DNA of 64,000 nt from Candidatus Poribacteria bacterium (GTDB taxonomy: Bacteria > Poribacteria > WGA-4E > WGA-3G): the NCBI GenBank assembly GCA_965262955.1, contig CBDHGE010000001.1, forward strand, positions 3,103,637 through 3,167,636. The letters are read 5' to 3'. Position numbers and translations under genes: made by a program. Every line of letters begins with the position of its first letter. Positions within the stretch are counted from its first letter, which is position 1. Below, piece by piece: positions 1,438-50,066 of this stretch. Under the pieces are notes generated by a model that ran no database searches, was not told the origin of the DNA, and was given only the letters and a program-made list of their open reading frames with translations.

Positions 1438-2964
1438 TCAAAAGTGTGTAGGAGGTTCAAGTTCTTTCAACTCCCACAGGATGTGCCCGAATTCAAATGC
1501 ACCTGGTGCATTACCCCTAATCAATTCCGCGTCGATTCCCCAAGCGAGTTTGTAAGCCGCGAGAATTTGAGTCAACGAACTCTCCACGTTCCCGTGGCAG
1601 AGTAAAGCGACAGTGCCTCCTCCTCCGCCACCTGTGATTTTAGCACCATAGATGCCACCCTGTCTGCCAATTTTCCGAGCGATATTCACAAGTCCATCGA
1701 CTTCAGGTGAACCGAGTCCTGCCAAGTCGCGATAACTGGCATTGGATTCGTACATGAGGTCACCCGCCTCTCTGAGATAGTCTGATGTGTGATCTGGATC
1801 GTTATCGGCATTTTTTATAGCGGTTATGAATTGCTTGACGCGGGCATTTTCATAAATGGCATGTTCCACTCGATCCTTCACGACATACAACTTTTCGGGT
1901 TCTACTTGCGTGACGGTATCAACGGTTTCACCGTACCTTTCGAGAAACTCGTCGCCCCGCATCTGTTCAGGCAGTAAGGGTACGCACTGTTCATGGAATT
2001 CTTGCACAGAAAGATTGCACAAGTAGTTATCCGCTAATGCTTCCGACATTTTTCGATCGCGATCGTTCTCTCCAGAATCGGACTTATCTGTGGTATCGGT
2101 CCCTGATGCAAAAGCCGCTTTAAGGATAGTGAGTCCCATAAAGGCCCCAGTCCGCGTATCAATGTAGGCGGTGCTGGTTGTACTTCTGCGTACTTTCGTG
2201 TACATACCCACAAAACTTACATTCGACGGGCATGAAACAAATTCCAAGATTTTGTCTGGTTGACAAAGAATTGAAACAATTTTAGTCGACATGCCTGCGA
2301 CAGAAGTTACCTGATCCATAATCCCGCAAGGGGCACCAACAACCTGGTTTTCAACAGTTTGTGCAAGCCGCGCTATTTCTATCATGTCTAACTTTAAGTT
2401 GTAGAGTCGGTTGAGTGCTGTTAACGTCGCTACCTCAATGGCTGCAGAAGAGGAAATACCACCACCCATTGGGATATTACTGTTGATAACGATTGTGGCA
2501 CCGTGGGGGAACTGCTCAATTTTTCCTTCCTTAAGAAGCACATAAAATGCACCGAGTATGTAACCCGCCCACGCGGTACTTTGTTCTTTGTTAAAGAGTT
2601 CTCGAATCTGAGAATATGTTTTAAGAGTGCCATCGGTATAAAAATTATCAAGCGAAAGATGAAAATTAGGGCGCAATTCAGTTCCGGCATTCAGCGTGAC
2701 TGCACACAGGTGTCTGTCTTCTCTGGCTTGGCACGCGGCGATTGCGTTTCGGTTAAGGGGCATCTCAAAAACGTTCGATCCGCAGTAATCAGCGATGCCA
2801 CCCATAATGTCGAGCCTTGCCGGCGCACAGGTCACGATCACCTGTCCTCTTTTTTGTAAGCCAAAGGAAAAGAAAAGGTCAGGAGAGTCATCTTGTAAAA
2901 GGTATTCCAACTCAGAGACCTGAAATGGTTTCACGTTGGTGCCGTGGAGTTGTTCAACTTTCAT
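1438..2964 (-). CDS. GHMP-family sugar kinase (galactokinase-like)
   Basis: ARLDIMGGIADYCGS (GalK-like N motif), PMGGGISSSAAIEVA (GHMP ATP-binding motif), C-terminal KITGGGGGGTVALL. ATG at 2964. Confidence 0.75.
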   Translation of the reverse strand: MKVEQLHGTNVKPFQVSELEYLLQDDSPDLFFSFGLQKRGQVIVTCAPARLDIMGGIADYCGSNVFEMPLNRNAIAACQAREDRHLCAVTLNAGTELRPNFHLSLDNFYTDGTLKTYSQIRELFNKEQSTAWAGYILGAFYVLLKEGKIEQFPHGATIVINSNIPMGGGISSSAAIEVATLTALNRLYNLKLDMIEIARLAQTVENQVVGAPCGIMDQVTSVAGMSTKIVSILCQPDKILEFVSCPSNVSFVGMYTKVRRSTTSTAYIDTRTGAFMGLTILKAAFASGTDTTDKSDSGENDRDRKMSEALADNYLCNLSVQEFHEQCVPLLPEQMRGDEFLERYGETVDTVTQVEPEKLYVVKDRVEHAIYENARVKQFITAIKNADNDPDHTSDYLREAGDLMYESNASYRDLAGLGSPEVDGLVNIARKIGRQGGIYGAKITGGGGGGTVALLCHGNVESSLTQILAAYKLAWGIDAELIRGNAPGAFEFGHILWELKELEPPTHF

Positions 2965-3173
2965 TGGTCTTCCCGGTTAGGATGTCTTTGTAATAATGGT
3001 GGTCGACAACGCCTTGATGTAAGTGCAGAACGGAAAATCCAGTTGAACGAATATGATTTCAATTGCTCTAACTATCGCTTTAAACACGTTCCGAGTGCCA
3101 CTCAGAGAGTAAACATCTACTATATCATGTTATGCCAATTGCGTTAATTTATCAAGTCTATTTTATTGGATCA

Positions 3174-3219
3174 TTTAGTTTTCCAATAATTTACATCCGG
3201 ACGCCCGAACTTGTTCGGG
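3174..3219 (+). repeat. Interspersed repeat family A, partial copy (3' core tttagttttccaataatttacatccggacgCCCGAACttGTTCGGG with terminal palindrome)
   Basis: Near-identical to 30600..30644 and 40505..40559. The CCCGAAC/GTTCGGG arms are perfect inverted repeats. Confidence 0.6.
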
Positions 3220-3272
3220 GTAAGGCGCGTGAACCCTAACAAGGATGTAATTCAAAGAATGGATTTAGTCTA

Positions 3273-4880
3273 TTAAGGGTTAACAACCCTAACGTCCTCT
3301 CCCTCTTTTAAAGAGTGTTGTCCAGCAGTGACGACGGCATCCCCTTCCATGAGTCCGCTGATAACTTCAGCCTGACTGCCTCGTAAAAGTCCTATCTCCA
3401 CGACACGCCGTCTGCTCACATTATCTTCGATGACGAAGACGTTTTGTGTTTTTGTATTGACATTCTCAATGAGTGAAGCACGCGGAATCAGAAGTGCGTC
3501 TGTATGTACTTTGATAGGAACGGTAACTTTCGCAAACATTCCTGGCTTCAGAGTGCCTTCGGGATTGTCAATGCGAACCTCGACAGTTGCTATTCGCCGA
3601 GACGCTTGTAGCGTCGGGCTGATGAAAGTGATTGTGCCTGACATCGGTGTATCTATGCCATCAATTTCTATTGTTGCCTGTTGGTTGAGTGCCAATTGGC
3701 TCAACTGCGTCTCGATGACATCAACGGTAGCTATGACACTATCAATATTGACAATTTCAAAAAGTGGTGCTGCTGGAAGTGCCATTCCACCTAAATCTAA
3801 ATAGCGTTTGGAGATAACACCCGAAATCGGAGCGTAAATCGTAGCATCTTTCAGACGTTTTTGGGCGAGTTTGAGAGCAACCTGCGCTTGTGTACGTGCT
3901 GTTTTTGCCGATGTGATCTCTGCTTCCCAACTTTTCGCAGTTTCTAAGGCTTCGGCGGCAGTGAGTCCTGCACGTGCTGTTTCGACTTGCGAACGGGCAA
4001 GTTCAATATCTTTTTCCCATGTTTTTGTAGCCGCTTGTGTCTCTGCCAATCGTAGAGACGCTTCTGCTTGTTCGACCTGTGCTTCCATCGCTTGAATGTC
4101 CTCGACGCGAGCACCATTATCAATAAGTTGCAGTTGCTCTGTAGCGATCTTATGCTGCGCTATTGCGATGTCTAACTGCGTCTTCGCACTTTCAAGGGAT
4201 TGCTGGCTGATCGCACCGTTTTGGAAGAGTTCGGTCATTCGATCGTGATTGCTTTTAGCATTGGCGAGGTTCGCATCGGCTTGGTTTAGACCGGCTTCTG
4301 CTTGTCTCCGATCTTCAGCACGGGCACCACTTTTAATTTTCTGCAGATTTGCGACAAGCGATTCTAATGCTGCTTGTGCTTGTTCTATTTGCGTGACCGT
4401 TCGGATTTCAGAAAGGTCTACTACCTGTTGTAGTCCTATCTCTGCGGCGTGAAGTTGTGACTTCGCTTGCGCAATTTGTGTATGGACTCGGACTTCCGCA
4501 AGCTGCTTTGCCTGAGAATAGGCTGTTTCTGCTGATTCCAGGATGGCTTCTGATTGTTGCACTGCGAGTTGTAGTTCCTCATACTCCACAGTGGCAAGAG
4601 GGGCGTCTTTCTCAACACGGGCACCTTCATCTACATTTAAAGTGATAATACGTCCAGCGATCTTGGGGTAAACGCTAACTTGTGATTCTGCTTGAATGGT
4701 ACCCGATAGTTGATGTTCTAAACGGATCTCACCCCGTTTTGCCTTTGTGACTTCTACCGGTTTAAGCACAATAGCTTCAGCTTGTTGGGGCGCGGGGCTT
4801 TCACGTTTCATAAATCTTGGCACGGCTAAAATCACTGCGATTATTAATAATATACCGATGCCAATCAGTACTTTCTTCAA
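3273..4880 (-). CDS. Efflux membrane-fusion protein (HlyD/RND periplasmic adaptor family)
   Basis: N-terminal TM anchor, about 300 aa of coiled-coil (repeated AQ/LE heptads), C-terminal beta-barrel/lipoyl-like region (GMFAKVTVPI...ALLIPRASLI). Start is TTG at 4880 with AAGGAG 10 nt upstream. Confidence 0.8.
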   Translation of the reverse strand: MKKVLIGIGILLIIAVILAVPRFMKRESPAPQQAEAIVLKPVEVTKAKRGEIRLEHQLSGTIQAESQVSVYPKIAGRIITLNVDEGARVEKDAPLATVEYEELQLAVQQSEAILESAETAYSQAKQLAEVRVHTQIAQAKSQLHAAEIGLQQVVDLSEIRTVTQIEQAQAALESLVANLQKIKSGARAEDRRQAEAGLNQADANLANAKSNHDRMTELFQNGAISQQSLESAKTQLDIAIAQHKIATEQLQLIDNGARVEDIQAMEAQVEQAEASLRLAETQAATKTWEKDIELARSQVETARAGLTAAEALETAKSWEAEITSAKTARTQAQVALKLAQKRLKDATIYAPISGVISKRYLDLGGMALPAAPLFEIVNIDSVIATVDVIETQLSQLALNQQATIEIDGIDTPMSGTITFISPTLQASRRIATVEVRIDNPEGTLKPGMFAKVTVPIKVHTDALLIPRASLIENVNTKTQNVFVIEDNVSRRRVVEIGLLRGSQAEVISGLMEGDAVVTAGQHSLKEGEDVRVVNP

Positions 4881-4958: not shown

Positions 4959-6362
4959 CTATTGTAGACTTTGTCCTATCGCTTTTTCCAGTCTTACCAA
5001 ACCGACGACGTAATCATGATGTGCTTGAAGGCGATTAACTTCTGCTTGTGCGAGGGCGAGTTGTGTGTCAGTCAACGCAACGGTGGTAATAATACCGTTT
5101 TGAAATTGTAGGTTAGCGATACGGACACTTTCTCGTGCTTGTGCGATAGCCTCGCGCTGAACATCGATAAGGGTTTGTGCGCCAAGAAGGTTGAGATAGG
5201 CGGAGCGGACCTCAAATTCGACACCTACTTTGACTTGGTCGCCACCTAACTGGATCTGTTTTAGAGCAGATTCGGTCTGTTGCACGGCTGCGCTCGTTGC
5301 GAATCCATCAAAAATCGGGATGTTAATTTGAAAACCGACACTCCAGATCCTGTTCATTTCCGTAAGTCGTTCATTCTGTGAAATCTGATAATTTGAGAAC
5401 AGACCGAGGTCGGGAAGCCGTCGCGTTTTAGCAATGTCAATCTGTTTGTAAGCCGCTTGTTCACTAAATTGTGTGCGGCGTACCTCTGGGCGATTTTCGA
5501 GTGCTTGTTGTATTAATTTATCAAGATTTAACGCCGGCATTTGATGATTTTCTGGTATTGCGAGTGTGCCTTTTACTGTTACATCCTGTGCGAGTGGGAC
5601 GTTAAGCACTGTTTTATAGGCGTTTTTAGCGGTACGAACGCCATTTTCGGAGCGAATTAGCGTTGATTTAGCGTTTGCGAGTTGAACCTTTGCACGAAGG
5701 ACATCAAAGTTAGTCGCTGCACCTGCTTCAAGCGATACCTCCGCAATTGCAAGTTGTTCTTCAACGAGGGAAACGCTCTGCTGCGCTACTCTAACGAACT
5801 CTTGTGCGACCAAAGCACCGTAGAAGGCTTCGGATACGTCTAAGCGGAGTTGATTATAGGCAGCATCGACATCGCGTTGTGTAGCCTGATAGTTGAGTTG
5901 TGCGGCTTGGTAGCCATAATAATAACGTCCCCAGGCAAAGATCGGCTGTGTTAAATTAACTGTGCCTTGGGCGTTGTGATGTGCACCAAATTCCAATTCA
6001 ATCAGGTCGGCTTCGTTATCCGCACTGGGCGGTTGCATCCCATTCATTGCTTCGCCCGGCATTGGAAATCCGAATCCGCCATCGGCTCGAATTACTGATT
6101 TTTGGATGTCCTTAAAATAGGTGTAATTGCCGCTTGCTGCAACCCGTGGTAAGAGTCCCCCGAGTGCTGCACGAACTTGTGCTTCGGCGGCTTTAAGGTT
6201 TTGTTCGGCGGTCTGAACGGTCAGATTGTTCTGTTTGGCAATTTCAATGCTCTCTTCTAACGTCAAAACCTTCGGTTCTTGCGCCATAGCAGAGAGGTGT
6301 ATTAGGAGTAATAATAAGGTTCCACCAACACAGATGAAGTGGCGGAACCGTAGTGGGTGCAT
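4959..6362 (-). CDS. Outer-membrane efflux protein (TolC-like OMF)
   Basis: Signal peptide then LTLEESIEIAKQNNLTVQTAEQNLKAAEAQV... Two tandem TolC repeats (QLRLDVSEAFY..., LGGDQVKVGVEFEVRSAYLNLL). Start moved to ATG at 6362 (GGAGG upstream). The ORF track's longer 6461 start lacks a signal peptide. Confidence 0.8.
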   Translation of the reverse strand: MHPLRFRHFICVGGTLLLLLIHLSAMAQEPKVLTLEESIEIAKQNNLTVQTAEQNLKAAEAQVRAALGGLLPRVAASGNYTYFKDIQKSVIRADGGFGFPMPGEAMNGMQPPSADNEADLIELEFGAHHNAQGTVNLTQPIFAWGRYYYGYQAAQLNYQATQRDVDAAYNQLRLDVSEAFYGALVAQEFVRVAQQSVSLVEEQLAIAEVSLEAGAATNFDVLRAKVQLANAKSTLIRSENGVRTAKNAYKTVLNVPLAQDVTVKGTLAIPENHQMPALNLDKLIQQALENRPEVRRTQFSEQAAYKQIDIAKTRRLPDLGLFSNYQISQNERLTEMNRIWSVGFQINIPIFDGFATSAAVQQTESALKQIQLGGDQVKVGVEFEVRSAYLNLLGAQTLIDVQREAIAQARESVRIANLQFQNGIITTVALTDTQLALAQAEVNRLQAHHDYVVGLVRLEKAIGQSLQ

Positions 6363-8370: not shown

Positions 8371-8763
8371 GTTTCACAGCGTCAAAACACACGCCCATTA
8401 GGTGTGAAGTGAACGCTGACCTCCTTACTTCTTAGAATGGGCTTGCAAGCAACGCCCCTCGTTTTAGATAGTGCCTTTACTCCTCAAGGACTATGAACTG
8501 AAGTCTATATGCTTTGTTCTATTTTATATAATACTACTCTTGAAAGATTATGTCAACCGAAAAGTAAGGGCATTTAGATCGTTTAGCTTTCCTTTTTCCG
8601 CAGTAGGCGAGGTTTGTAACCTTGCCGATCTACCTTACCAATCCACTTCTTTCCTCTATCCTGCAAATCTTGGTTCAGACAACTCATAACCCACAACCTA
8701 CTACCTTCTTAACTAACCGCTGATAGCTGATAGCTGAGAACTGGACACCCTATAAAAATTGGG

Positions 8764-8799
8764 TTGACGCTTGCCTTAGTCTTGTGGCATAATCATAAT
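8764..8799 (+). promoter_or_regulatory. Putative sigma70 promoter for LamG-1 (TTGACG, 18-nt spacer, CATAAT; duplicated cataat)
   Basis: ttgacgcttgccttagtcttgtggcataatcataat, about 90 nt upstream of the 8888 start. The -10 is imperfect. Confidence 0.3.
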
Positions 8800-8887
8800 T
8801 GGATTAGGTTCAAAAAGATCTCGCTAATCTGTTAGATAAATTCGTTTTGTTGGGACAAAAATATCTCAACACATTTAGGAGGTTTTT

Positions 8888-10976: not shown

Positions 10977-11735
10977 ATGAAATTCCGTATATTCGTAGGA
11001 TTGTGCACTATTTGCCTTAGTCTCATTATCGTCTCACTCGGCAATGCTGAAATTAATCTTGACGATTTTGCTGGTATATGGCTCTTTGATGAAGGTAAAG
11101 GTCAGGTTGTTAAAGATTTTACTGAGAATGGGAATGATGGTGAATTTGACGGACCCAAATGGATAGATGGGCAGTTCGGCAAGGCACTGGAATTCGATGG
11201 AAGCCCTAAGTATGTCATTATTGAACATAACGACCTTTTCAACTTCGAGGATGATGACTTTACTGTCGGATGTTGGATGAACTCGGAGAATAAAGATGCT
11301 TACGTCGTCATTAAACGGAACGGTGGTGCCGGTTTTTGGGCGATGAGTTCAAGCATTGATAGAGACACCGGCTTTTTCATCTTTGAGGGTGGTGGACAAC
11401 ACATTGACGATGGTAAAACCGATATTGTTGGAGGAGGTTGGCATCACACTGTCGCTGTTCGTAAAGACGGTGTTATTTCCCTATATGTAGATGGCGAGCT
11501 GGAAACCGAGCGAAACGTCGGCGCGAATATGGATAATCCCGCTATTCTGAAATTCGGTGGTTGGGGAAGTGAGAACCTCATCGGCGGATTGGATGAAGTA
11601 TTTATCACGAAAAAGGGCGTAGCGTTGGAAGAAGAGGATATCCAACTCCTTGCCGAGGAAGGTTGGGAAGTCGCCTTAGATGTTTCCGCAAAAGGAAAAA
11701 TGGCAACCACGTGGGCAAGGCTAAAAGCCCAATAA
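10977..11735 (+). CDS. Secreted LamG-like (Laminin_G_3) protein, paralog 2
   Basis: LDDFAGIWLFDEGKGQVVKDFTENGNDGEFDGPKWIDGQFGKALEFDGSPKYV..., C-terminal MATTWARLKAQ. The TGA of the upstream oxidoreductase (10972..10974) overlaps the first ATG (10971). The second ATG (10977) has better AGGAGA spacing. Translationally coupled to the oxidoreductase. Confidence 0.7.
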   Translation: MKFRIFVGLCTICLSLIIVSLGNAEINLDDFAGIWLFDEGKGQVVKDFTENGNDGEFDGPKWIDGQFGKALEFDGSPKYVIIEHNDLFNFEDDDFTVGCWMNSENKDAYVVIKRNGGAGFWAMSSSIDRDTGFFIFEGGGQHIDDGKTDIVGGGWHHTVAVRKDGVISLYVDGELETERNVGANMDNPAILKFGGWGSENLIGGLDEVFITKKGVALEEEDIQLLAEEGWEVALDVSAKGKMATTWARLKAQ

Positions 11736-15600: not shown

Positions 15601-16473
15601 TCAGTCCTTAGCGGGTGGAAACGGTTTCACAGGTTCATTAATTTGATTTCCTCTTGGGATAGGTTCCGGTGGAAATTGCGTGAAAATCTCACCATTCTTC
15701 ATCGCCCATCGGGCGTTGGGGAAGAAGCGTTTGTTCCTCCCAGCAATCTCTGGATTTGTCCAAACGCCAGCAACGGCAACACGACTCTGCTCACTTTTGT
15801 TTGGTGGACTGTAGTGCCACATATTACTGTGCCAAAAGACAACGTCTCCAGTCCCTAATTCAATATGGCGTACACCGTGCTTTTCGATCATCTCCTGAAC
15901 GGCTTTGCGTGGCAATTCACCGTGAATACTGTCTGGGTATAGGACGTGTTCGATAATCTCGGTTTTGTGACTGCTCGGTATAAACTGCATGCATCCGTTT
16001 TCGCGAGTTGCAGGTTCAAGTGCTACCCAGAAATTGAGAGGTTCAGTATCGCCATCTCGCCAGAGTCCGTTGTCTTGGTGCCACGGGGTTGCAGCACCTG
16101 TGCGCGCCGGTTTGAGGAAGCTACTATTGAATTTCACAATCACGTCGTCTCCCAAAAAATAGCGGGCAATGTTCAGCATGGCAGGACCGGTATGGATATT
16201 GTGCCATATCAGCGGAGATTGAACACAGAAATTAGCGAGTTTACGGTAGCGTGCGATGCGTCCTTGCGGTGAGTCCTCCATCGGGTTCATTGGATCGAAA
16301 TCGGCAAACTCGCCAGGGTTGGGCAGCATAAGCACGTTGCGAATGACGCCGCGGAGTTGTGCTGCCAAATCTTCTGAGATAACATTGCGCTCAATAAAAT
16401 AGCCTTCACTCTCATATCGCGCTTTTTGTGCAGCGGTTGGTTGCCAGTTTCGCATGAAAATGTTTCCAGTCAT
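15601..16473 (-). CDS. Phytanoyl-CoA dioxygenase (PhyH) family Fe(II)/2OG oxygenase, tandem copy A
   Basis: WHQDNGLWRDG...FWVALEPATRENGCMQFIPSSHK...VFWHSNMWHYSPPN (HxD...H facial triad). About 88% identical to 16511..17422. Likely true start is M7 (16455), by alignment with the paralog. Confidence 0.85.
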   Translation of the reverse strand: MTGNIFMRNWQPTAAQKARYESEGYFIERNVISEDLAAQLRGVIRNVLMLPNPGEFADFDPMNPMEDSPQGRIARYRKLANFCVQSPLIWHNIHTGPAMLNIARYFLGDDVIVKFNSSFLKPARTGAATPWHQDNGLWRDGDTEPLNFWVALEPATRENGCMQFIPSSHKTEIIEHVLYPDSIHGELPRKAVQEMIEKHGVRHIELGTGDVVFWHSNMWHYSPPNKSEQSRVAVAGVWTNPEIAGRNKRFFPNARWAMKNGEIFTQFPPEPIPRGNQINEPVKPFPPAKD

Positions 16474-16510: not shown

Positions 16511-17422
16511 TTAGTAGCCCTTAGCGGATGGGAACGGCTTCGGTGCTTTAGCAGTTTGATGTTCCATCTGGACAGCTTCCGGTGGAAATTGTGTGCACAC
16601 CTCACCGTTTTTCATCGCCCATCGGAAGTGTCCCCAGAAGCGTTTACTAATCTTGGTGATCTCTGGATTTGTCCAGACACCGGCAACGGCAACACGGCTC
16701 TTCTCACTCCGATTGGGTGGGCTATAATGCCACATATTACTGTGCCAAAAGACAACGTCTCCGGTACCTAACTCGATGTGATGTACACCGTGCTTTTCTA
16801 TCATCTTCCGAACCTCCTCACGCGGAAGTTCGCCGTGGATGCTATCTGGGTATAACACGTGTTCAATAATCTCAGTTTTATGGCTGCCGGGTATAAACTG
16901 CATGCATCCATTTTCTCGGGTTGCTGGCTCAAGCGGCGTCCAAAAATTGAAAGGTTCAGTTTCACCATCTCGCCAGAGTCCGTTGTCTTGATGCCACGGG
17001 GTCGCGGCACCAGTACGCGCTGGTTTAAGGAAGCAACTATTAAACTTCATGATGATATCGTCGCCAAGGAAATAACGGGCGATGTTGAGAAGGGCAGGAC
17101 CCGCAAAGGTGTTGTGCCATATCAATGGGGCTTGGACACAAAAGTTGTTAAGTTTACGGTAGCGTGCAATGCGTCCTTGTGGTGAGTCTTCCATTGGATC
17201 CATGGGATCGAAATCAACAAACTCACCCGGGTTGGGCAGCATAAGAACATTCCGAATGACACCACGGAGTTGTGCTGCCAAATCTTCTGAAATAACATTA
17301 CGAAGGATAAAATAACCTTCGTCCTCATATTGTGCTTTTTGTGCAGGCGTTGGTTCCCATCGTTCCATTGTTAATTTCCTTTGCTTCTTTGTGGGGCTGA
17401 TGCGCTTGCGATGCCTACCCAT
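16511..17422 (-). CDS. Phytanoyl-CoA dioxygenase (PhyH) family Fe(II)/2OG oxygenase, tandem copy B
   Basis: Same motifs as copy A. Probable start is MERWEPT at 17368 (AAGGA RBS). The ORF track's 17422 start adds a basic N-extension. Confidence 0.85.
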   Translation of the reverse strand: MGRHRKRISPTKKQRKLTMERWEPTPAQKAQYEDEGYFILRNVISEDLAAQLRGVIRNVLMLPNPGEFVDFDPMDPMEDSPQGRIARYRKLNNFCVQAPLIWHNTFAGPALLNIARYFLGDDIIMKFNSCFLKPARTGAATPWHQDNGLWRDGETEPFNFWTPLEPATRENGCMQFIPGSHKTEIIEHVLYPDSIHGELPREEVRKMIEKHGVHHIELGTGDVVFWHSNMWHYSPPNRSEKSRVAVAGVWTNPEITKISKRFWGHFRWAMKNGEVCTQFPPEAVQMEHQTAKAPKPFPSAKGY

Positions 17423-17544: not shown

Positions 17545-18288
17545 CTAACGATCCTTAAGTCGTCCCCACGTCGTCGTAAGTAAACCGTTTGGTGAAACAG
17601 GCAGAACCGCCTCTACACCTTCCATCAACGCTCCGATTTCTGCTTCTGTGATACCTCGATCAAAAAAGATAATCTCATCCAATCTACCAATGAATTTCTC
17701 ACCACCAAATGTACCAAACAGCAATTCCGCTGACTGGTCTACATCGCCGCCTTGTTTGGTCGTGGCTTCGAGCGTGCCGTCTACATAAAGTTGCATCTCA
17801 CTTCCATCGTAAAGTCCAACAATATGATACCACTTTTCGGGGTCAATGACGGTTTTTCCCCACACACCGCCGGTAAACCCACCACCCGACCAGATACCGA
17901 ACACATAACCTCCGGGTACTCGCTCAGTTTGTGATTGGACCTCCAATAAATAAGAGCCGTTCCGTCGAATGGCGGTATCGGAAATCCCTTTATTCATATA
18001 GACCCAAGTTGCGATGGTCATCTGATCCTTAAAGTTGAGGCTATCGGAGGGTTCAACCCTCACAACATGCGGTGGTTCAAATTCCAATGCCCCGCCGAAT
18101 TTGCCTTCTGCCCACTTTGCACCGGTAATCGCACCATCGTTCCCGTTGCCCGACGTATCCGCAGCAACTCCACCTTTACCTTCATCAAAAAGCCAAATAC
18201 CAACGGCATCGTCTAACAGTTCTGCAGAGAGTGGACTATTTACTATGCACACACCAATAACGATAGCAAACCAATATATCTGTTTCAT
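17545..18288 (-). CDS. Secreted LamG-like (Laminin_G_3) protein, paralog 3
   Basis: Signal peptide, LLDDAVGIWLFDEGKGGVAADTSGNGNDGAITGAKWAEGKFGGALEFEP..., C-terminal LTTTWGRLKDR. Confidence 0.7.
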   Translation of the reverse strand: MKQIYWFAIVIGVCIVNSPLSAELLDDAVGIWLFDEGKGGVAADTSGNGNDGAITGAKWAEGKFGGALEFEPPHVVRVEPSDSLNFKDQMTIATWVYMNKGISDTAIRRNGSYLLEVQSQTERVPGGYVFGIWSGGGFTGGVWGKTVIDPEKWYHIVGLYDGSEMQLYVDGTLEATTKQGGDVDQSAELLFGTFGGEKFIGRLDEIIFFDRGITEAEIGALMEGVEAVLPVSPNGLLTTTWGRLKDR

Positions 18289-29851: not shown

Positions 29852-30319
29852 CTACTTCCACTTGAATTCACTTGCCGAATCATAATTCTCTTTTATATCG
29901 GTTTTGTAAATTGTCCCGTTTGGACGCGCATAAAACGTGAGTTGGTAGGTGTAACCGGTTGATATGTATCTTCCACCTACTGCCCGCATGCCACCGGGAC
30001 GACGTCGGGGATGAATCTCGTGGTCTTGTCGAAGCTGGAACCCCCGCGCCCGGCTTTCTTGCTTGGCTATAAAACCATGTACAGGTATTTCCCAAATATA
30101 AGTGTGCCAACCTGTTCCATTATCGCTAATTTCATCCGGTGATCCCCACTTCTGAATCGCCTTTGAAATGTGCGTGTCCTTCCATACGGATATAGTTTGC
30201 TGCATTTTCTCATCTTGTGTAGGTTCGGATTTGTTCACCAAATGTGCAGGTGCCGTACACCCTACCAGTAAAATGCTTGCGATAAACACAAGAGGCAAAA
30301 GTAATAAAAATCTGTTCAT
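29852..30319 (-). CDS. Hypothetical lipoprotein
   Basis: MNRFLLLLPLVFIASILLVGC (signal peptide plus lipobox). Start moved to 30319. Confidence 0.4.
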   Translation of the reverse strand: MNRFLLLLPLVFIASILLVGCTAPAHLVNKSEPTQDEKMQQTISVWKDTHISKAIQKWGSPDEISDNGTGWHTYIWEIPVHGFIAKQESRARGFQLRQDHEIHPRRRPGGMRAVGGRYISTGYTYQLTFYARPNGTIYKTDIKENYDSASEFKWK

Positions 30320-30534
30320 TTTCAAATCCCTTCCTTCTCTCCTATTGTACGCAATCAACCAGATTCGCATTGCTTTTCTGTTACTAAATAAGCAATTTCC
30401 ATGCCAAATTTAAAATAGGGGACAGAACGGGAAATATAGTGGATTCAGTGGCGAAACGTAAGTTTCGACTGCACAAAATAGGGCAAATAAGGAGATAACT
30501 GCACGGATTTGGGCAGAGGCAGATAGGAAAAAAC

Positions 30535-30644
30535 GTGAGTTCGAGAAAGAAAACTTGTACCGTAAACTGTTAGTTTGCAATACTTCTGGGTAGGTTCATT
30601 CAGTTTTCTAATAATTTATATCTGGACGCCCGAACTTGTTCGGG
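30535..30644 (+). repeat. Interspersed repeat family A, full copy (about 110 bp ending in CCCGAACttGTTCGGG)
   Basis: gtgagttcgagaaagaaaacttgtaccgtaaactgttagtttgc...ttttctaataatttatatctggacgcccgaacttgttcggg. About 85-90% identical to 40439..40559. Confidence 0.6.
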
Positions 30645-30768
30645 ATAAATGAAAAAAGATGTCCCTGTCGCGGACGTCCAGATTTAGCCTGTGAATAGAC
30701 TGGATTTAGTCTGGGATTAGACTAAATTTTGCCCACACGCGGCACAATTTGTCTTTGCTTTACATTAA

Positions 30769-39159: not shown

Positions 39160-40206
39160 TTAACGCAAGTCCACTTTAACAGGTCTGCCGAGTTCTGCGG
39201 ACTGCCACGCAGCTTCAGTTAATTGAATAACACGTAATCCGTTCTCGACACCGATCGGATTATCTGTCCGTTCACCTCGGATAAGCTCAATAAAGGTGAC
39301 ATCCTTGTTACCTGATGCCGGCATTTCAGACGCGTCGACAAGTTCCGGATTACCTTCCCGTCCTTGGCGATAGAGTTGACCTGCGCGAAGATAAAGCGCG
39401 CCTTCCTCAAGCCAGATAGAAAAATCTTCTCGAACGCCTCCAAAAGCGTGTCCGACAATGCTAATATTACACAAGGCGCCCGTATCAAACTTGATTGACA
39501 TCGCCGTGAGAACATCTACTTCAATGTCCAAGTTGTCTATCATCGCGAAAACGGTGTCAGGACTCGCTTCCAATACCCAAAGGAGAATGTCAATCAGATG
39601 GCTCCCTGAGTCGTTCAATTGTCCACCGCCGCCAAGAAATGGATCTTGTCGCCACTTCCCCTGCTGATTTCGATACCAGTTCTGCGATTGATGCGCCGAC
39701 ACAAAGTTCACGCGACCCAATTCACCACTCTGGACTATATTGCGGCAGTATTGATAGGTCGGACTCAGATGGCGTTGGTAGCCGATCATCAGGTGCAAGC
39801 CGGTCTCTTCCACTTTTGCGATCACCTGTTTAGCGTGATCCACGGTGCAGACCATCGGTTTTTCCGTGTGCACATGGCATCCTGCATCAAGTGCGTCCAT
39901 GATGTGCTGGAAATGCAGACCGTGCGGTGAGCTAATGACAACAGCATCAGGCTTCGCAGCAGCCAGCATCTCAACGTGATCCGAATAGGTAGGCAGAGAT
40001 GCGTCTAAACCAACGTTTTCCTTGAAGGCATCGAGTGAACTTCCACTCGGATCCGCAAGGGCAACAATCTCTACATCTTCAACACTTGATACGCTCCGTC
40101 CGTGTCCACGGGCGTTACCACCACATCCGATGAAGGCAAAATTTAGTTTCTGTTTTGACAATTGTATATCGCTCCCGTACTTAAATCTTGGTGCATAACC
40201 TATCAC
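39160..40206 (-). CDS. Gfo/Idh/MocA-family oxidoreductase
   Basis: LNFAFIGCGGNARGH Rossmann motif, EKPM block. Confidence 0.85.
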   Translation of the reverse strand: MIGYAPRFKYGSDIQLSKQKLNFAFIGCGGNARGHGRSVSSVEDVEIVALADPSGSSLDAFKENVGLDASLPTYSDHVEMLAAAKPDAVVISSPHGLHFQHIMDALDAGCHVHTEKPMVCTVDHAKQVIAKVEETGLHLMIGYQRHLSPTYQYCRNIVQSGELGRVNFVSAHQSQNWYRNQQGKWRQDPFLGGGGQLNDSGSHLIDILLWVLEASPDTVFAMIDNLDIEVDVLTAMSIKFDTGALCNISIVGHAFGGVREDFSIWLEEGALYLRAGQLYRQGREGNPELVDASEMPASGNKDVTFIELIRGERTDNPIGVENGLRVIQLTEAAWQSAELGRPVKVDLR

Positions 40207-40359
40207 AACCTATAATAAAAGTGCAAGCGTTAATTTCTGATCCAAAATGCGAGATATATTGTGTAAAAATGCTTATTTAAACTTGAACTCGATAATAGAG
40301 ATGCAAATGGACATCCTAAAGTCAAACCCACATTAGATAAGTAACATTTTAAATTTAAC

Positions 40360-40388
40360 TTGACATAAGTTAATAAAAATAATATAAT
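40360..40388 (+). promoter_or_regulatory. Perfect-consensus sigma70 promoter (TTGACA, 17 nt, TATAAT) inside an AT-rich island
   Basis: ttgacataagttaataaaaataatataat read directly. Points toward repeat-A copy 3 and the TonB-dependent receptor about 1 kb downstream. Confidence 0.45.
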
Positions 40389-40438
40389 ATATCATGACTC
40401 TTTTCACATGTAGAAAATCGGCAATTTGATAAAGAAAT

Positions 40439-40559
40439 GTGAGTTCGAGAAAGAGCACTTGTACCGTAAACTTTTAGTTTGCGTGCCTCTGAGTAGAATA
40501 GTTCAGCTTTCTAATAATTTACATCCGGATGCCCGAATGGATGCCCGAACTTGTTCGGG
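40439..40559 (+). repeat. Interspersed repeat family A, full copy with internal duplication of the gcccgaa unit
   Basis: gtgagttcgagaaagagcacttgtaccgtaaacttttagtttgc...tttctaataatttacatccggatgcccgaatggatgcccgaacttgttcggg. Confidence 0.6.
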
Positions 40560-40647
40560 ATACCTTCATCAATCGACATCAGCATATAATTCTGCAAATC
40601 CTAAAAATCCTGTAAATCTTGGTTCAGACAAAATAAAAAATAAACAA

Positions 40648-40750
40648 GCGCACTTTCCAGACACTTTCACTGACACAGTGTGTCACTTTCAGTAGCACTT
40701 TGAGTGTCACTTTCAACAGCACTATGACAGTCATAGTGCTGTGCACTTTT
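40648..40750 (+). repeat. Cluster of CACTTT direct repeats plus two perfect palindromes (TGACACAgTGTGTCA at 40671..40685; AGCACTATGACaGTCATAGTGCT at 40718..40740). Candidate operator array.
   Basis: Read directly. Lies between the consensus promoter and the TonB-dependent receptor gene. Confidence 0.45.
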
Positions 40751-40989
40751 ACAATATACCCCACTTATAAGCACAAAAACCCCACAATTTGCGGCGTACT
40801 CGCTAAAATGCGACGTGCATTCAGCCCCTCCAGACCCAATCACCAACACCCATATTTTCAGAGTAACTTTCACAACAACTTTTCCCTAAAGCCAGAAAAA
40901 CCCAGTCAGTGTATGGGTTCGTAGTCTCTTTCCCAATTTATCATTTTCCGATTTTACTCTGAACACTCTGAAATTAGGATGGATCCTCA

Positions 40990-41045
40990 TGCCCAACTTC
41001 TTCCTGTAGGAGCGAGTGTTTTTGCTTGGGTATTTTCCCATGCTC
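40990..41045 (+). repeat. Interspersed repeat family B, copy 1 (about 56 bp, imperfect hairpin GGAGCGAG...CTCGCGAC)
   Basis: ttcttcctgtaggagcgagtgtttttgcttgggtattttcccatgctcgcgacttc. Near-identical to 50010..50066. Confidence 0.55.
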
Positions 41046-41353
41046 GCGACTTCTATATCCTCCAATTTTGATATAACATAGCAATGGTAACTGCCACACC
41101 TAACTGCTAATTACTAATCGCTAATCACCAATTACCAACTTCACATTATTTGAAAATACCTCAGTGAGTGAGCGGAAGTGTCCAATAAATGAACAGCACT
41201 GAACAAATTATGAAAAAGATAAATCGAAATTCACCTGTTTTAAGCCGAATTACAGTTGGCACGCAATTTGCTACGGTTATGATAAAGCAGGGATCAGATA
41301 TTGTAGGATGCCTACCAGACATCCAGAAAAGTGGATTTGAAGGAGAATGCGCA

Positions 41354-43675
41354 GTGCAAAAATTAAGTTATCTTTTTTTTCTCATAAGTTTAAGTCTATT
41401 AGTGGGTTGGGTGCCACAGATGGGCGCGGAAAGCGATAGAGAAAGTAGTGAGGAAGCTGTCACTCTTGAGGAAATAACGGTTACAGCCACACGTGCCGAG
41501 AAGGACCCTTTCAAAACGCCTAATACTATCACCGTCCTCAATTTAAAACAGTTGGAACAGACCAACGCGGACATCGCATCCAATCTACTGCGTGATGCAG
41601 TCGGCGTTGAGGCACAGCAGACGACGGTAGGGCAAGGTTCTCCATTACTCCGGGGCTTGACTGGCTACCAGACCGTAATACAAGTTGACTGGGTTCGCCT
41701 CAATAATTCAACATTTCGTTCAGGACCGAACCAATACGCCGCAACCCTGGCACCGGAAACCTTAGAGCGAGCAGAGGTGCTACTCGGCTCAAGTTCCATG
41801 CTATATGGAAGCGGCGCGATGGGTGGTGTTATCAGCATGTTTACCAAAGAGGTGCCGCTTGACCCATCACAAGAAACTTGGAATATCCATCCACGACTAC
41901 TTGCCCGCTACGCGACGGCTACTCAGGAACGGCTTGGTAGGTTAGAGATGACGGGGAACAAAGGACGTTTTGGATTCATTGCTGGCGGTGGCATGCGATC
42001 CTACGGTAATATAACCTCTGGAAGTGGATACGACCTCCACTACAAAAATCGGAAGTTTGAAATAGTAAACGAGAAACCAAGTGGCGTGGAACTCTTTGAT
42101 GAGATGCCAGCGACGCCGCCTGAGAGATGGCTCATTGACGAAGAAGGTCCGCTGGGTTGGAAAGCCTATGATGCCGACGCAAAAATTGCGTATCAGCTCA
42201 GCGATACGAGTACTGTCAACGTTGCCTACCAGATGTGGAGGCAACCGCAAACACCACGCTATGATAAAATCGCCCCACGGGAGTTTGACGAATTCTATTT
42301 TGAACCGCAAAATCGGGATCTCGTTTATGCCAATTATATAGTGAATCCAATAGCAAGTAGCATCGACACGGTACGCCTGACGGCGTCTTATCATCGCCAA
42401 AAAGAGGGACGAAACGAACTGAAGCTCAATTCAACATCTCGACGGCAGCGGTATGATACGGTTAACACCATCGGCTTGAGCGCGCAAGTAATCAGCACGA
42501 TTCTTCCTCGGCAACGCTTGGTCGGTGGTGGAGAATTCTACTTTGATATGCTGCAGAGTCGGACCATCAAAACAGATATCAAGACGCGCAAGGAAGATGT
42601 TGATGAAAATCTTGGGCGTTTCATTAACGGTTCTCAATTCTGGGATGCAAGTTTGTTCCTCCAAGATGAAATCATGATCCACGAGCGGGTAGAACTGACC
42701 ATCGGGGGTCGTGCAACCCTTTATCAAACAAATGCTGACCTCAGTTTGCGTGATCCCAGTTTCGATAAATTCAATGAATTCGATAGCAGTTTAACCGGTA
42801 GTGCTGGGATCGTTATCGGGCTTACAGATTCTCTAAACTTTGTCAGTAGTTTTGGAACCGCATTTCGCGCGCCCTCTCTAAATGATACAACCGCAGTAGA
42901 GGTTACCAATGAAGGCGTTACTGCGCCCAGTCCCGATTTGGGTCCTGAAACCTCATGGACGGTTGAGAGCGGACTCAGAGCGAGACATTCCTACTTCCGG
43001 GGTGCTCTAACGTTATTTCACAGTCGGGTCAACGGTTTAGTTGCACGCAGACCTGTCCAAGAAGCTTACACAGGTGAAACATTACCCCAACTCCATCAAG
43101 ATCTGATTACTGAATATAAGGATATTGATGTACTCGTATTTGACAACGTTGATGAAGTGCAATTTCAAGGCATTGAATTAGCAGGGCTAATCCCAATGCA
43201 TTCCGATTGGTCGGTCTATGGTAATGCAGCATTGATACGCGGGCAAGTCCTCAAGATTAACGGTGAGGCACCAGATCCTGCGAAGCCTTGGGAAGCACGT
43301 ACGCGTAGAGAACCTCCATTGAACGGAATCTTTGGAATCCAGTGGGAACCGAGGCACACGCAGTTTTGGGCGACGTTCTTTGTGAGAGGTGCAGCAGAAC
43401 AGAGGCGACTGAATCGGAGCGACATCCGCGACCCGCGGATACAGGGCTCAACGCGCGATCCGGCGGAAGTTAAATTTGACACCAATGGTGCCGCAATAGA
43501 TGCTGGGACGCCAGCATGGTGGACCCTCAACATTCGTGGCGGTGTTAAGCTCTTTGATTACACACGTTTGACCCTGTCACTTGATAATCTACTTAATCGG
43601 CGGTATCGTCAGCACGGTTCCGGTATAAATTCTCCAGGTTTCAATGTAGGTTTAACTCTGGACAATCGATTTTAG
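41354..43675 (+). CDS. TonB-dependent outer-membrane receptor
   Basis: Signal peptide, plug domain (ITVTATRAEKDPFKTPNTITVLN...), 22-strand barrel region, terminal ...GLTLDNRF (C-terminal Phe). Start moved to GTG 41354 (AAGGAG 8 nt upstream, directly before the signal peptide). The ORF track start 41189 adds a 55-aa non-secretory leader. Confidence 0.85.
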   Translation: MQKLSYLFFLISLSLLVGWVPQMGAESDRESSEEAVTLEEITVTATRAEKDPFKTPNTITVLNLKQLEQTNADIASNLLRDAVGVEAQQTTVGQGSPLLRGLTGYQTVIQVDWVRLNNSTFRSGPNQYAATLAPETLERAEVLLGSSSMLYGSGAMGGVISMFTKEVPLDPSQETWNIHPRLLARYATATQERLGRLEMTGNKGRFGFIAGGGMRSYGNITSGSGYDLHYKNRKFEIVNEKPSGVELFDEMPATPPERWLIDEEGPLGWKAYDADAKIAYQLSDTSTVNVAYQMWRQPQTPRYDKIAPREFDEFYFEPQNRDLVYANYIVNPIASSIDTVRLTASYHRQKEGRNELKLNSTSRRQRYDTVNTIGLSAQVISTILPRQRLVGGGEFYFDMLQSRTIKTDIKTRKEDVDENLGRFINGSQFWDASLFLQDEIMIHERVELTIGGRATLYQTNADLSLRDPSFDKFNEFDSSLTGSAGIVIGLTDSLNFVSSFGTAFRAPSLNDTTAVEVTNEGVTAPSPDLGPETSWTVESGLRARHSYFRGALTLFHSRVNGLVARRPVQEAYTGETLPQLHQDLITEYKDIDVLVFDNVDEVQFQGIELAGLIPMHSDWSVYGNAALIRGQVLKINGEAPDPAKPWEARTRREPPLNGIFGIQWEPRHTQFWATFFVRGAAEQRRLNRSDIRDPRIQGSTRDPAEVKFDTNGAAIDAGTPAWWTLNIRGGVKLFDYTRLTLSLDNLLNRRYRQHGSGINSPGFNVGLTLDNRF

Positions 43676-49915: not shown

Positions 49916-50009
49916 GCGTTTTTTACACTATAGAGTGAGCGGGCGTCAAGCCCGCTCCTCTGGTTACAGGGGCACTTAGTTTTCCAGTAGGACGATCTCT
50001 GAATCCTGA

Positions 50010-50066
50010 CTTCTTTCTGTAGGAGCGAGTGTTTTTGCTTGGGTGTTTCCCCATGCTCGCGACTTT
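50010..50066 (+). repeat. Interspersed repeat family B, copy 2
   Basis: ttctttctgtaggagcgagtgtttttgcttgggtgtttccccatgctcgcgactttt. Confidence 0.55.

Follow-up and report, generated by a model that had tools for sequence, protein, structure and literature searches.

The window analysed here is a stretch of 64,000 nucleotides from a Candidatus Poribacteria genome (GenBank assembly GCA_965262955.1, contig CBDHGE010000001.1, forward-strand positions 3,103,637 to 3,167,636), in which a long non-coding spacer separates a gene for a GFO/IDH/MocA oxidoreductase from the gene for a TonB-dependent receptor (41354–43675; Pfam domains Plug and TonB_dep_Rec_b-barrel). Positions below count from the first nucleotide of the window. 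An earlier reading of the sequence (the original prediction) had described the spacer as an AT-rich island with a perfect-consensus sigma-70 promoter, two repeats (A and B), a segment of CACTTT direct repeats holding two perfect palindromes, and a run of heptamer iterations, and had suggested that it specifies either a heavily regulated long 5′ leader of the receptor transcript or a separate non-coding RNA. All of the features that it listed were found where it had placed them. Comparison of the spacer with its counterparts at related loci leads to a different interpretation, which as a whole we consider likely: a short control region was split by a mosaic of dispersed repeats, and the receptor gene has a sigma-54-type promoter of its own.

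Structure of the spacer

The orthologs of the oxidoreductase are all 333 amino acids long, and its gene therefore most likely starts at TTG 40161, which would make the true spacer 40162–41353, or 1192 bp. At the other end, the GTG start assigned to the receptor (41354) agrees with the lengths of its orthologs (770–787 amino acids) and with an aligned ATG and AGGAG in 10 loci. The AT-rich island is also real, the segment 40207–40440 being 73.5% AT compared with 52.7% for the whole window (GC 47.3%). The spacer was compared with 14 fetched orthologous loci (listed as L001–L005, L095–L099, L105 and L106), the receptors of which are 75–90% identical to that of the window and, where named, belong to Candidatus Poribacteria. 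The receptor protein itself had no exact match on record, and the source genome is not represented in this set. Most of the fetched loci keep the same gene order: ABC ATPase, PhyH, GFO (the oxidoreductase), receptor, cytidylyltransferase, ThuA, RecX and AlaRS.

A spacer of ~1.2–1.3 kb was found only in the window and in its closest relative (L001/L002), where the receptor is 90% identical to that of the window. The distance from the oxidoreductase gene to the receptor gene is ~280–330 bp in L003, L004, L096, L105 and L106, and the range across these loci and L099 is 284–620 bp; L105 and L106 have the short form although their receptors are 88% and 87% identical to that of the window. Other genes occupy the position of the spacer in L005, L095, L097 and L098. 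In alignments, the two outer segments (40162–40281 and 41146–41353) are common to all loci and the interior (40282–41145) is shared only by the window and L001. This 864-bp interior is missing from 12 of the 14 orthologous loci, whose receptors are 75–88% identical to that of the window, a pattern of presence and absence expected of a transposon or miniature inverted-repeat transposable element (MITE). We refer to it below as the insertion, specific to the lineage of the window and L001/L002.

Immediately to the left of the insertion lies the first copy of a putative 9-bp target-site duplication, TTATTTAAA (40273–40281), the right copy of which, TTATTTGAA (41146–41154), adjoins the other end; insertion-free loci have a single CTTAYGAAR-like copy of this sequence, while the window and L001 carry two, flanking the insertion. 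The terminal inverted repeat made by the ends of the insertion itself, CTTGAACTCGATAAT and ATTACCAACTTCACA, is weak. It is thus likely, although not proven, that the insertion arose in a single transposition-like event. Further to the left, the AT-rich segment next to the oxidoreductase gene (40162–40281) appears to be an ancestral control region (minus strand): it is present in all orthologous loci, aligns with the insertion-free L003, L004, L096, L105 and L106, is 89% identical to L001, and contains a promoter-like TTGCAC-17-TAGGTT on the minus strand.

Within the insertion, the window and L001 align in blocks that are broken by lineage-specific pieces. Every named interior feature is either a tandem array or a member of a repeat family dispersed in Poribacteria, and the modules that recur elsewhere are the promoter, repeats C and B, element D and the repetitive extragenic palindrome (REP) of repeat A. 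These recurrences were sought in a sample of 830 kb comprising the window and 99 fetched loci, which is mostly Poribacterial and rich in repeats. The plus strand contains only 13% G over 40560–41000. The Rfam scan proposed by the original prediction gave no family match, either for the window at the gathering score or for 40100–41500 at E ≤ 10, where only chance-level matches appeared. Two other candidates were rejected. A 34-amino-acid gene call in L001 (5339–5443, minus strand) is not a hidden small gene, its ATG being lost in the window (CAT to CGT), and a terminator-like hairpin on the minus strand (40794–40782) falls within a 31-nt stretch that L001 does not have.

Control signals next to the receptor gene

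The outer segment that borders the receptor gene contains a compact set of conserved signals. The Shine-Dalgarno sequence AGGAG (41341–41345) and the GTG start (together 41341–41356, plus strand) lie closest to the gene, and the start is supported by the ortholog alignment. Upstream of them lies a sigma-54-type −24/−12 promoter, TGGCACGCAATTTGCT (41257–41272, plus strand), which reads TGGCAC-N5-TTGCT; no other exact match occurs in the window. The form TGGCAY-N5-TTGCW is found at the same place in all orthologs, with TGGCA and TTGC invariant and at fixed spacing while the neighbouring bases vary. Transcription is predicted to start near 41283, giving a leader of ~70 nt, in which an alignment of 10 orthologs yielded no consensus pairs. 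Further upstream is a palindrome, TGTCCA-ATAAA-TGAACA (41179–41195, plus strand), which, together with the conserved AAATTATG that follows it, varies little or not at all across the orthologous loci. The distance between the centre of this palindrome, which has the general form TGTYCA-N5-TGAACA, and the TGGCA downstream of it is exactly 70 nt in 12 of 13 loci, with 71 nt in the remaining one. These patterns of conservation make it most likely that the receptor gene is served by a proximal sigma-54-type promoter of its own. The palindrome, at approximately −96, is a candidate binding site for an enhancer-binding activator, which would drive sigma-54 RNA polymerase.

This arrangement resembles that of well-known −24/−12 promoters with an upstream activator site, such as glnAp2 with NtrC and nifH with NifA (TGT-N10-ACA). 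The receptor element matches the TGGCACG-N4-TTGCW consensus exactly, and a dyad-symmetric site precedes it by ~70 nt at a fixed spacing; the two are conserved across orthologs and recur together at a second locus, ahead of genes for cell-surface proteins. Unlike the NifA and NtrC sites, the receptor dyad has the form TGT-N11-ACA (TGTYCA-N5-TGAACA). The second locus is the unlinked L015 (~3840–4012, minus strand), in which a palindrome, TGTCCAGAAATTGAACA, lies 78 nt upstream of TGGCACGAAAATTGCT, a full TGGCACG-N4-TTGCT; this pair precedes the genes for a BNR/Asp-box protein and a WD40 protein with a type IX secretion system (T9SS) sorting domain (Por_Secre_tail). It is possible that the receptor and the L015 genes are part of a small sigma-54 regulon of surface proteins. 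Another sigma-54-like sequence, TGGCATGGAAATTGCT, with one mismatch, is present in the window at 30391–30406 (minus strand), 20 nt upstream of a 172-amino-acid open reading frame (29852–30370) that has no Pfam match; it shares its spacer with the second copy of repeat A.

The sigma-70 promoter module

The perfect sigma-70 promoter, TTGACA-17-TATAAT (40360–40388, plus strand; 12/12), is the only perfect match in the window, with its −35 hexamer at 40360–40365 and its −10 hexamer at 40383–40388. Five sigma-70 sites with at most one mismatch occur in the window as against 0.36 expected, and this enrichment of near-consensus sites indicates that the sigma-70 consensus applies in this organism. The original prediction considered a perfect-consensus promoter to be rare in genomes, which does not hold well for this clade, as there are 8 in the 830 kb sample, approximately one per 100 kb. 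Its view that the sequence is not the ordinary promoter of the receptor is supported; the sequence lies within the insertion, and the receptor gene has a conserved proximal promoter.

The promoter is part of a probably portable module (40340–40433, plus strand). In L001, the orthologous copy reads TTTACA-17-TATGAT, and 40281–40393 is 87% identical between the window and L001, compared with 66–69% at the fourfold-degenerate sites of the two flanking genes, which served as the neutral yardstick; the module is therefore under constraint. In addition, a non-orthologous copy with perfect hexamers is present in L062 (5046–4967), where conservation extends from approximately −40 to +45. L062 is from another Poribacterium, and the 689-bp spacer that holds this copy precedes murB, a gene that also has its own proximal promoter. 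The transcript is predicted to start near 40395 and to begin with ~40 nt of shared sequence, beyond which (from +45) the copies in the window, L001 and L062 are entirely dissimilar. Scans of Joint Genome Institute (JGI) metagenomes for further copies gave only five unrelated AT-rich chance matches, and no terminator was predicted near the L062 module. A single transcription unit formed by the promoter and the arrays downstream of it was rejected: similar arrays in L068 and L081 are without a strong sense promoter, and in L081 the array lies between convergent genes, so promoter and arrays are separate modules.

Taken together, these properties suggest a promoter that is probably both active and portable, of the kind described previously as putative mobile promoters (PMC3488235). 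As in that system, a module of ~85 nt occurs at unlinked loci, detached from any one gene, and each copy lies upstream of a gene with its own proximal promoter; in contrast to it, there are two independent copies only and no demonstrated terminal repeats, and mobility is inferred. The promoter would fire into the G-poor repeat tract and produce an untranslated transcript, which would more likely be ended by Rho or at the REP hairpins than serve as a dedicated leader of the receptor. The Correia elements of Neisseria offer a comparison as promoter-carrying MITEs. A more speculative extension, which we regard as rather unlikely, is that the 85-nt module is a selectively maintained, portable Poribacterial cassette that either provides a constitutive sigma-70 input to genes with a regulated promoter of their own (here the sigma-54-type one of the receptor) or is where the transcripts of a new G-poor family of non-coding RNAs begin, carried by a mobile element of 0.9 kb that encodes no protein.

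Tandem arrays, palindromes and dispersed repeats of the insertion

The CACTTT segment is a minisatellite of 12-nt units (40648–40752, plus strand; tandem period 12/24), and it contains both of the palindromes, TGACACAgTGTGTCA (40671–40685) and AGCACTATGACaGTCATAGTGCT (40718–40740), which are perfect, as had been noted. L001 has a regular GAGTATCACTTT array in the place of the minisatellite and no perfect palindrome, and L068 and L081 carry arrays of another unit, TAGCGCGTTCTG, at the equivalent relative position. The hairpin formed by the minisatellite has a z-score of −3.5. A role of the palindromes as operators was rejected on account of their uniqueness in the window and their absence from L001; neither was found in any fetched locus. 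Palindromes absent elsewhere and no conservation of RNA structure, the outcomes that the original prediction had itself named as telling against it, are what was found. We read the palindromes as probable local products of array evolution. The one at 40718–40740 corresponds to an imperfect quasi-palindrome in L001, CACTTTCAGTGTCACAGTG (5268–5290). One could speculate that a template-switch mutation within the minisatellite perfected this 11-bp-arm palindrome, for which several coordinated substitutions would otherwise be needed.

The iterated heptamers were also confirmed (41107–41132, period 7) and belong to a microsatellite of CTAACTG, CTAATTA, CTAATCG, CTAATCA and CCAATTA units (41095–41145, plus strand) that forms the right end of the insertion and is common to L001. 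Similar heptamers adjoin module copies in L062, L068 and L081. Upstream of them is element D (40845–40976, plus strand), a G-poor sequence with an inverted repeat of ~13 bp at its bounds (TTTTCAGAGTAA, 40855–40866, and TTTACTCTGAACA, 40953–40965), further copies of which are present in L001, L068 (5035–5155) and L081. At two positions of this inverted repeat, the copies differ by compensatory changes. Element D is likewise accompanied in L068 and L081 by a 12-mer array and heptamers, made of other unit sequences.

Repeat C (40588–40632, plus strand) is a short dispersed repeat consisting of (AATCCTGNA)n followed by TTCAGACAA, with a period of 9 according to Tandem Repeats Finder. It recurs at 8657 in the window and in L029, L032, L062, L068 (three copies), L082 and L090. 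The copy at 8657 is located in another repeat-rich divergent spacer (8371–8887), where repeat C is followed by heptamers (8657–8720) and a GCTGATA tandem (8719–8737); the same spacer contains a near-consensus promoter at 8556–8528 (minus strand; 11/12).

Repeat B was confirmed at 40975–41052, with a second copy at 49988–50065. It is a REP-like hairpin with a GTAG tag nested in the insertion (40975–41062, plus strand; core 41005–41052), has the form TGTAGGAGCGAG...CTCGCGAC with a small insert in the loop, and resembles the published GTAG REPs (PMC3733652) in having an unpaired 5′ GTAG ahead of a stem-loop and in forming a multi-copy family. Its core, TGTAGGAGCGA, occurs 14 times in the 830 kb, compared with 0.4 expected. 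Just upstream of the second copy (within 49935–50065), the preceding coding stretch (stop at ~49914) ends in a GC-rich hairpin, gagcgggcgtcaagcccgctc; such a location downstream of a gene is the usual position of a REP. The sites that repeats A and B occupy in the window are taken in L001 by a different GTAG-type repeat, GTAGGTTGGGTTGAGCGG... (5028–5045, 5507–5530 and 5587–5610), which is also present in L079. The occurrence of this other repeat at both places in L001 indicates that the two spots were hit independently by different REP families in the two lineages.

Repeat A and its relation to REP elements

Repeat A lies at 40432–40562 (plus strand), with a full copy at 30528–30648 and a half copy at 3168–3223; L001 is without it, and it is nested in the insertion. 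It has a 5′ shell composed of GTGAGTTCGAGAAAG...TTAGTTTGC and the arm TTCAGCTTTCTAATAATTTACATCC, ahead of a REP singlet of 21 nt, GGATGCCCGAACTTGTTCGGG (40538–40558), and it includes a 12-nt duplication at 40527–40549. A scan of one genome per GTDB species, the counts of which are lower bounds, located the 21-mer in at least 89 stretches; it occurs many times per Poribacterial genome and three times in the window. The full REP units of relatives consist of an outer stem (GGAYG/CRTCC), a first hairpin, a linker of 12–18 nt and a second hairpin, and they reside in a shell of ~150 nt with terminal inverted repeats. Thus, most copies in relatives are inverted doublets (REPINs), and all three copies of the window are singlets that are without the second hairpin.

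A candidate enzyme for such elements was found in L047, which comes from a related Poribacterial genome and not from the source genome of the window. There, a gene of 199 amino acids (2453–3052, minus strand) scores 88.3 bits against the NCBIfam model REP_Tyr_transpos, the cutoff of which is 80 bits, and has a match to Pfam Y1_Tnp as well. This REP-associated tyrosine transposase (RAYT) gene stands among five flanking copies of the 21-mer. The segment 2233–3261 of L047 looks like a REPtron-like unit, with a tandem cluster of REPs at 3081–3261. Because the 21-mer is dispersed, is half of the double-hairpin units and flanks a RAYT gene, repeat A is a REP singlet, equivalent to one half of a REPIN as the term is used in PMC3116915. 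It is like the REP and REPIN elements described previously, which are mobilised by RAYTs (PMC3116915, PMC3733652), in ending in a dispersed intergenic 21-nt unit that contains a palindrome, usually arranged in relatives as inverted pairs across 12–18 nt. It differs from them in that the window copies are singlets inside a longer, MITE-like shell. Rfam gave no real match for eight loci with complete REP units. The L047 REP has a CGTC-like tag on one strand, and CGTC REPs have been reported without a dedicated transposase (PMC3733652); membership of the four published CGTC families was rejected (GC-rich stems, no CCA tail).

REPs are normally lineage-specific, while here an identical 21-mer spans several phylum labels. 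As GGAYGCCCGAACTTGTTCGGG, usually in the double-hairpin form, it is multi-copy in genomes labelled Armatimonadetes, Anaerolineae, Nitrospira, Desantisbacteria and Abditibacteriales, with L009, L013, L016, L018, L031, L034, L046, L048, L052, L071 and L078 among the loci concerned. This distribution suggests either horizontal spread of the RAYT/REP system or mis-binned contigs. The stem of the second REP hairpin occurs in compensatory variants (CCCGAA, CCCCAA, CCTCAA and CCGCAA). A recurrent junction, CCCGAACAAG|AATGTAATAYA..., marks places where one or more other elements are inserted precisely in the loop of the second hairpin, and was seen in the window at 3225–3275 and 30650–30735 and in L015, L032, L043, L056, L067, L083, L089, L090 and L094. 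One type of inserted element continues with ...TTGTCCCGCAAGTCCACACGCGA; another is a hairpin element of ~45 nt, GGATTTGGTCT-ATTCCC-AGACCAAATCC, which is represented in the window by a 22-nt tandem at 30681–30733.

Two further repeats lie elsewhere in the window. A 300-nt direct repeat (15603–15902 and 16516–16815; 77% identity) lies in two adjacent genes of ~300 amino acids, which are probably tandem paralogues, and a 137-nt inverted repeat (11061–11197 and 18077–18213; 70% identity) has its copies 6.9 kb apart.

Discussion

Control regions that have grown by acquiring repeats of the REP and MITE types are a known kind of feature, and the spacer upstream of the receptor gene is one of them. 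Our account of its history, which we hold with reasonable but not full confidence, begins with a divergent control region of ~290 bp that would have been split by the 864-bp non-coding insertion (40282–41145) in the common ancestor of the window lineage and its closest relative. Repeats A and B, both of REP type, would have been nested into the insertion later. The receptor's presumed control signals, namely the palindrome, the sigma-54-type element, the leader of ~70 nt, the Shine-Dalgarno sequence and the GTG codon, all lie downstream of the insertion. The perfect sigma-70 promoter would be cargo of the insertion, and the two perfect palindromes would be by-products of the evolution of the 12-mer minisatellite.

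Several observations weigh against parts of this account. The two copies of the putative target-site duplication, TTATTTAAA and TTATTTGAA, match at 8 of 9 positions, which is modest support for a single transposition, and the terminal inverted repeat is weak, with a chance probability of 0.016 in L001 and 0.09 in the window. A second full-length copy of the 864-bp unit was not found in the ~830 kb sample, in which only its modules recur. The promoter module is represented by only two independent copies, and no intrinsic terminator was predicted on the plus strand between 40395 and 41353, which would allow read-through into the receptor gene. With respect to the sigma-54-type element, a tblastn search of the 830 kb with segments of RpoN and NtrC found none, and the sequence TTGGCA-16-TATGAT (10/12) in the window, TTGGCA-16-TATAAT in L001, can also be read as a sigma-70 promoter.

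Of the alternatives, the best supported is a separate non-coding RNA gene, in which the module would drive a discrete RNA running, for example, from 40395 to the REP hairpin at 40558 or through the G-poor arrays. Part of this proposal of the original prediction stands, in that the module is conserved above the neutral level (87% versus 66–69%) and the conservation of its paralog in L062 extends from about −40 to +45. Downstream of the module, the sense strand contains little G in the window and, by reading of the sequence, apparently in L062 as well, and 3′ ends can be set or stabilised by REP hairpins (PMC3733652). The part that calls for a defined RNA fared less well: no terminator was predicted in the window or in L062, Rfam had no match, the transcribed sequence past +45 differs completely among the window, L001 and L062, +1 to +41 shows no significant fold (z = 0.32), and L068 and L081 have similar arrays with no strong sense promoter upstream. 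On balance, an RNA gene of this kind appears unlikely.

A second alternative concerns the receptor's proximal signals. TGGCAC-N5-TTGCT might not be a sigma-54 element at all; it could instead be the −35 region of a sigma-70 promoter or a repressor operator, with the palindrome as a repressor-binding or LexA-like box. The 10/12 match in the scan, its counterpart in L001 and the failure of tblastn to find rpoN, all mentioned above, favour such a reading. However, conservation of the −10-like hexamer does not extend to the other loci, the hexamer being lost or shifted in more distant orthologs while TGGCA and TTGC remain invariant at exact spacing, which weakens the sigma-70 reading of TTGGCA-16-TATGAT, as does the presence of ATGGCA or GTGGCA in several orthologs for a −35 hexamer. 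The fixed distance of 70 nt to the palindrome and the recurrence of the pair at L015 fit an activator-dependent sigma-54 promoter, and we regard this second alternative as quite unlikely.

The long regulated leader favoured by the original prediction, in which the receptor would be transcribed from 40360–40388 through a structured leader of ~960 nt with the palindromes and repeats as operators or RNA switches, is very improbable: although the promoter points toward the receptor, has no predicted plus-strand terminator in between, belongs to a module conserved between the window and L001, and has a paralog in L062 that also points at a downstream gene, the ~860 bp in question consist of dispersed repeats and are absent from 12 of the 14 loci despite receptors that are 75–88% identical, the window and L001 are unalignable past ~+45 except for repeat modules, Rfam gave no match, neither palindrome is conserved or found a second time, untranslated RNA of >900 nt with so little G would likely be a Rho substrate, and the receptor has a conserved proximal promoter of its own.

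The preferred account, a short control region interrupted by a repeat mosaic, thus separates a look-alike regulatory region from the likely real signals of the receptor, and implies that the textbook promoter and palindromes are mostly repeat debris. It changes no general principle, and its value lies mainly in annotation and in what it adds to Poribacterial regulation and REP biology, with two points of moderate interest, the sigma-54-type architecture and the portable promoter, both of them conserved. For the Poribacteria, an uncultured phylum whose regulation is unmapped, it provides three leads: a conserved sigma-54-type promoter with its upstream palindrome, which would govern the highly conserved receptor and one or more other surface-protein loci; a promoter cassette that apparently moves from locus to locus and is maintained by selection; and a REP/RAYT system that, together with several other non-coding repeat families, shapes intergenic DNA.

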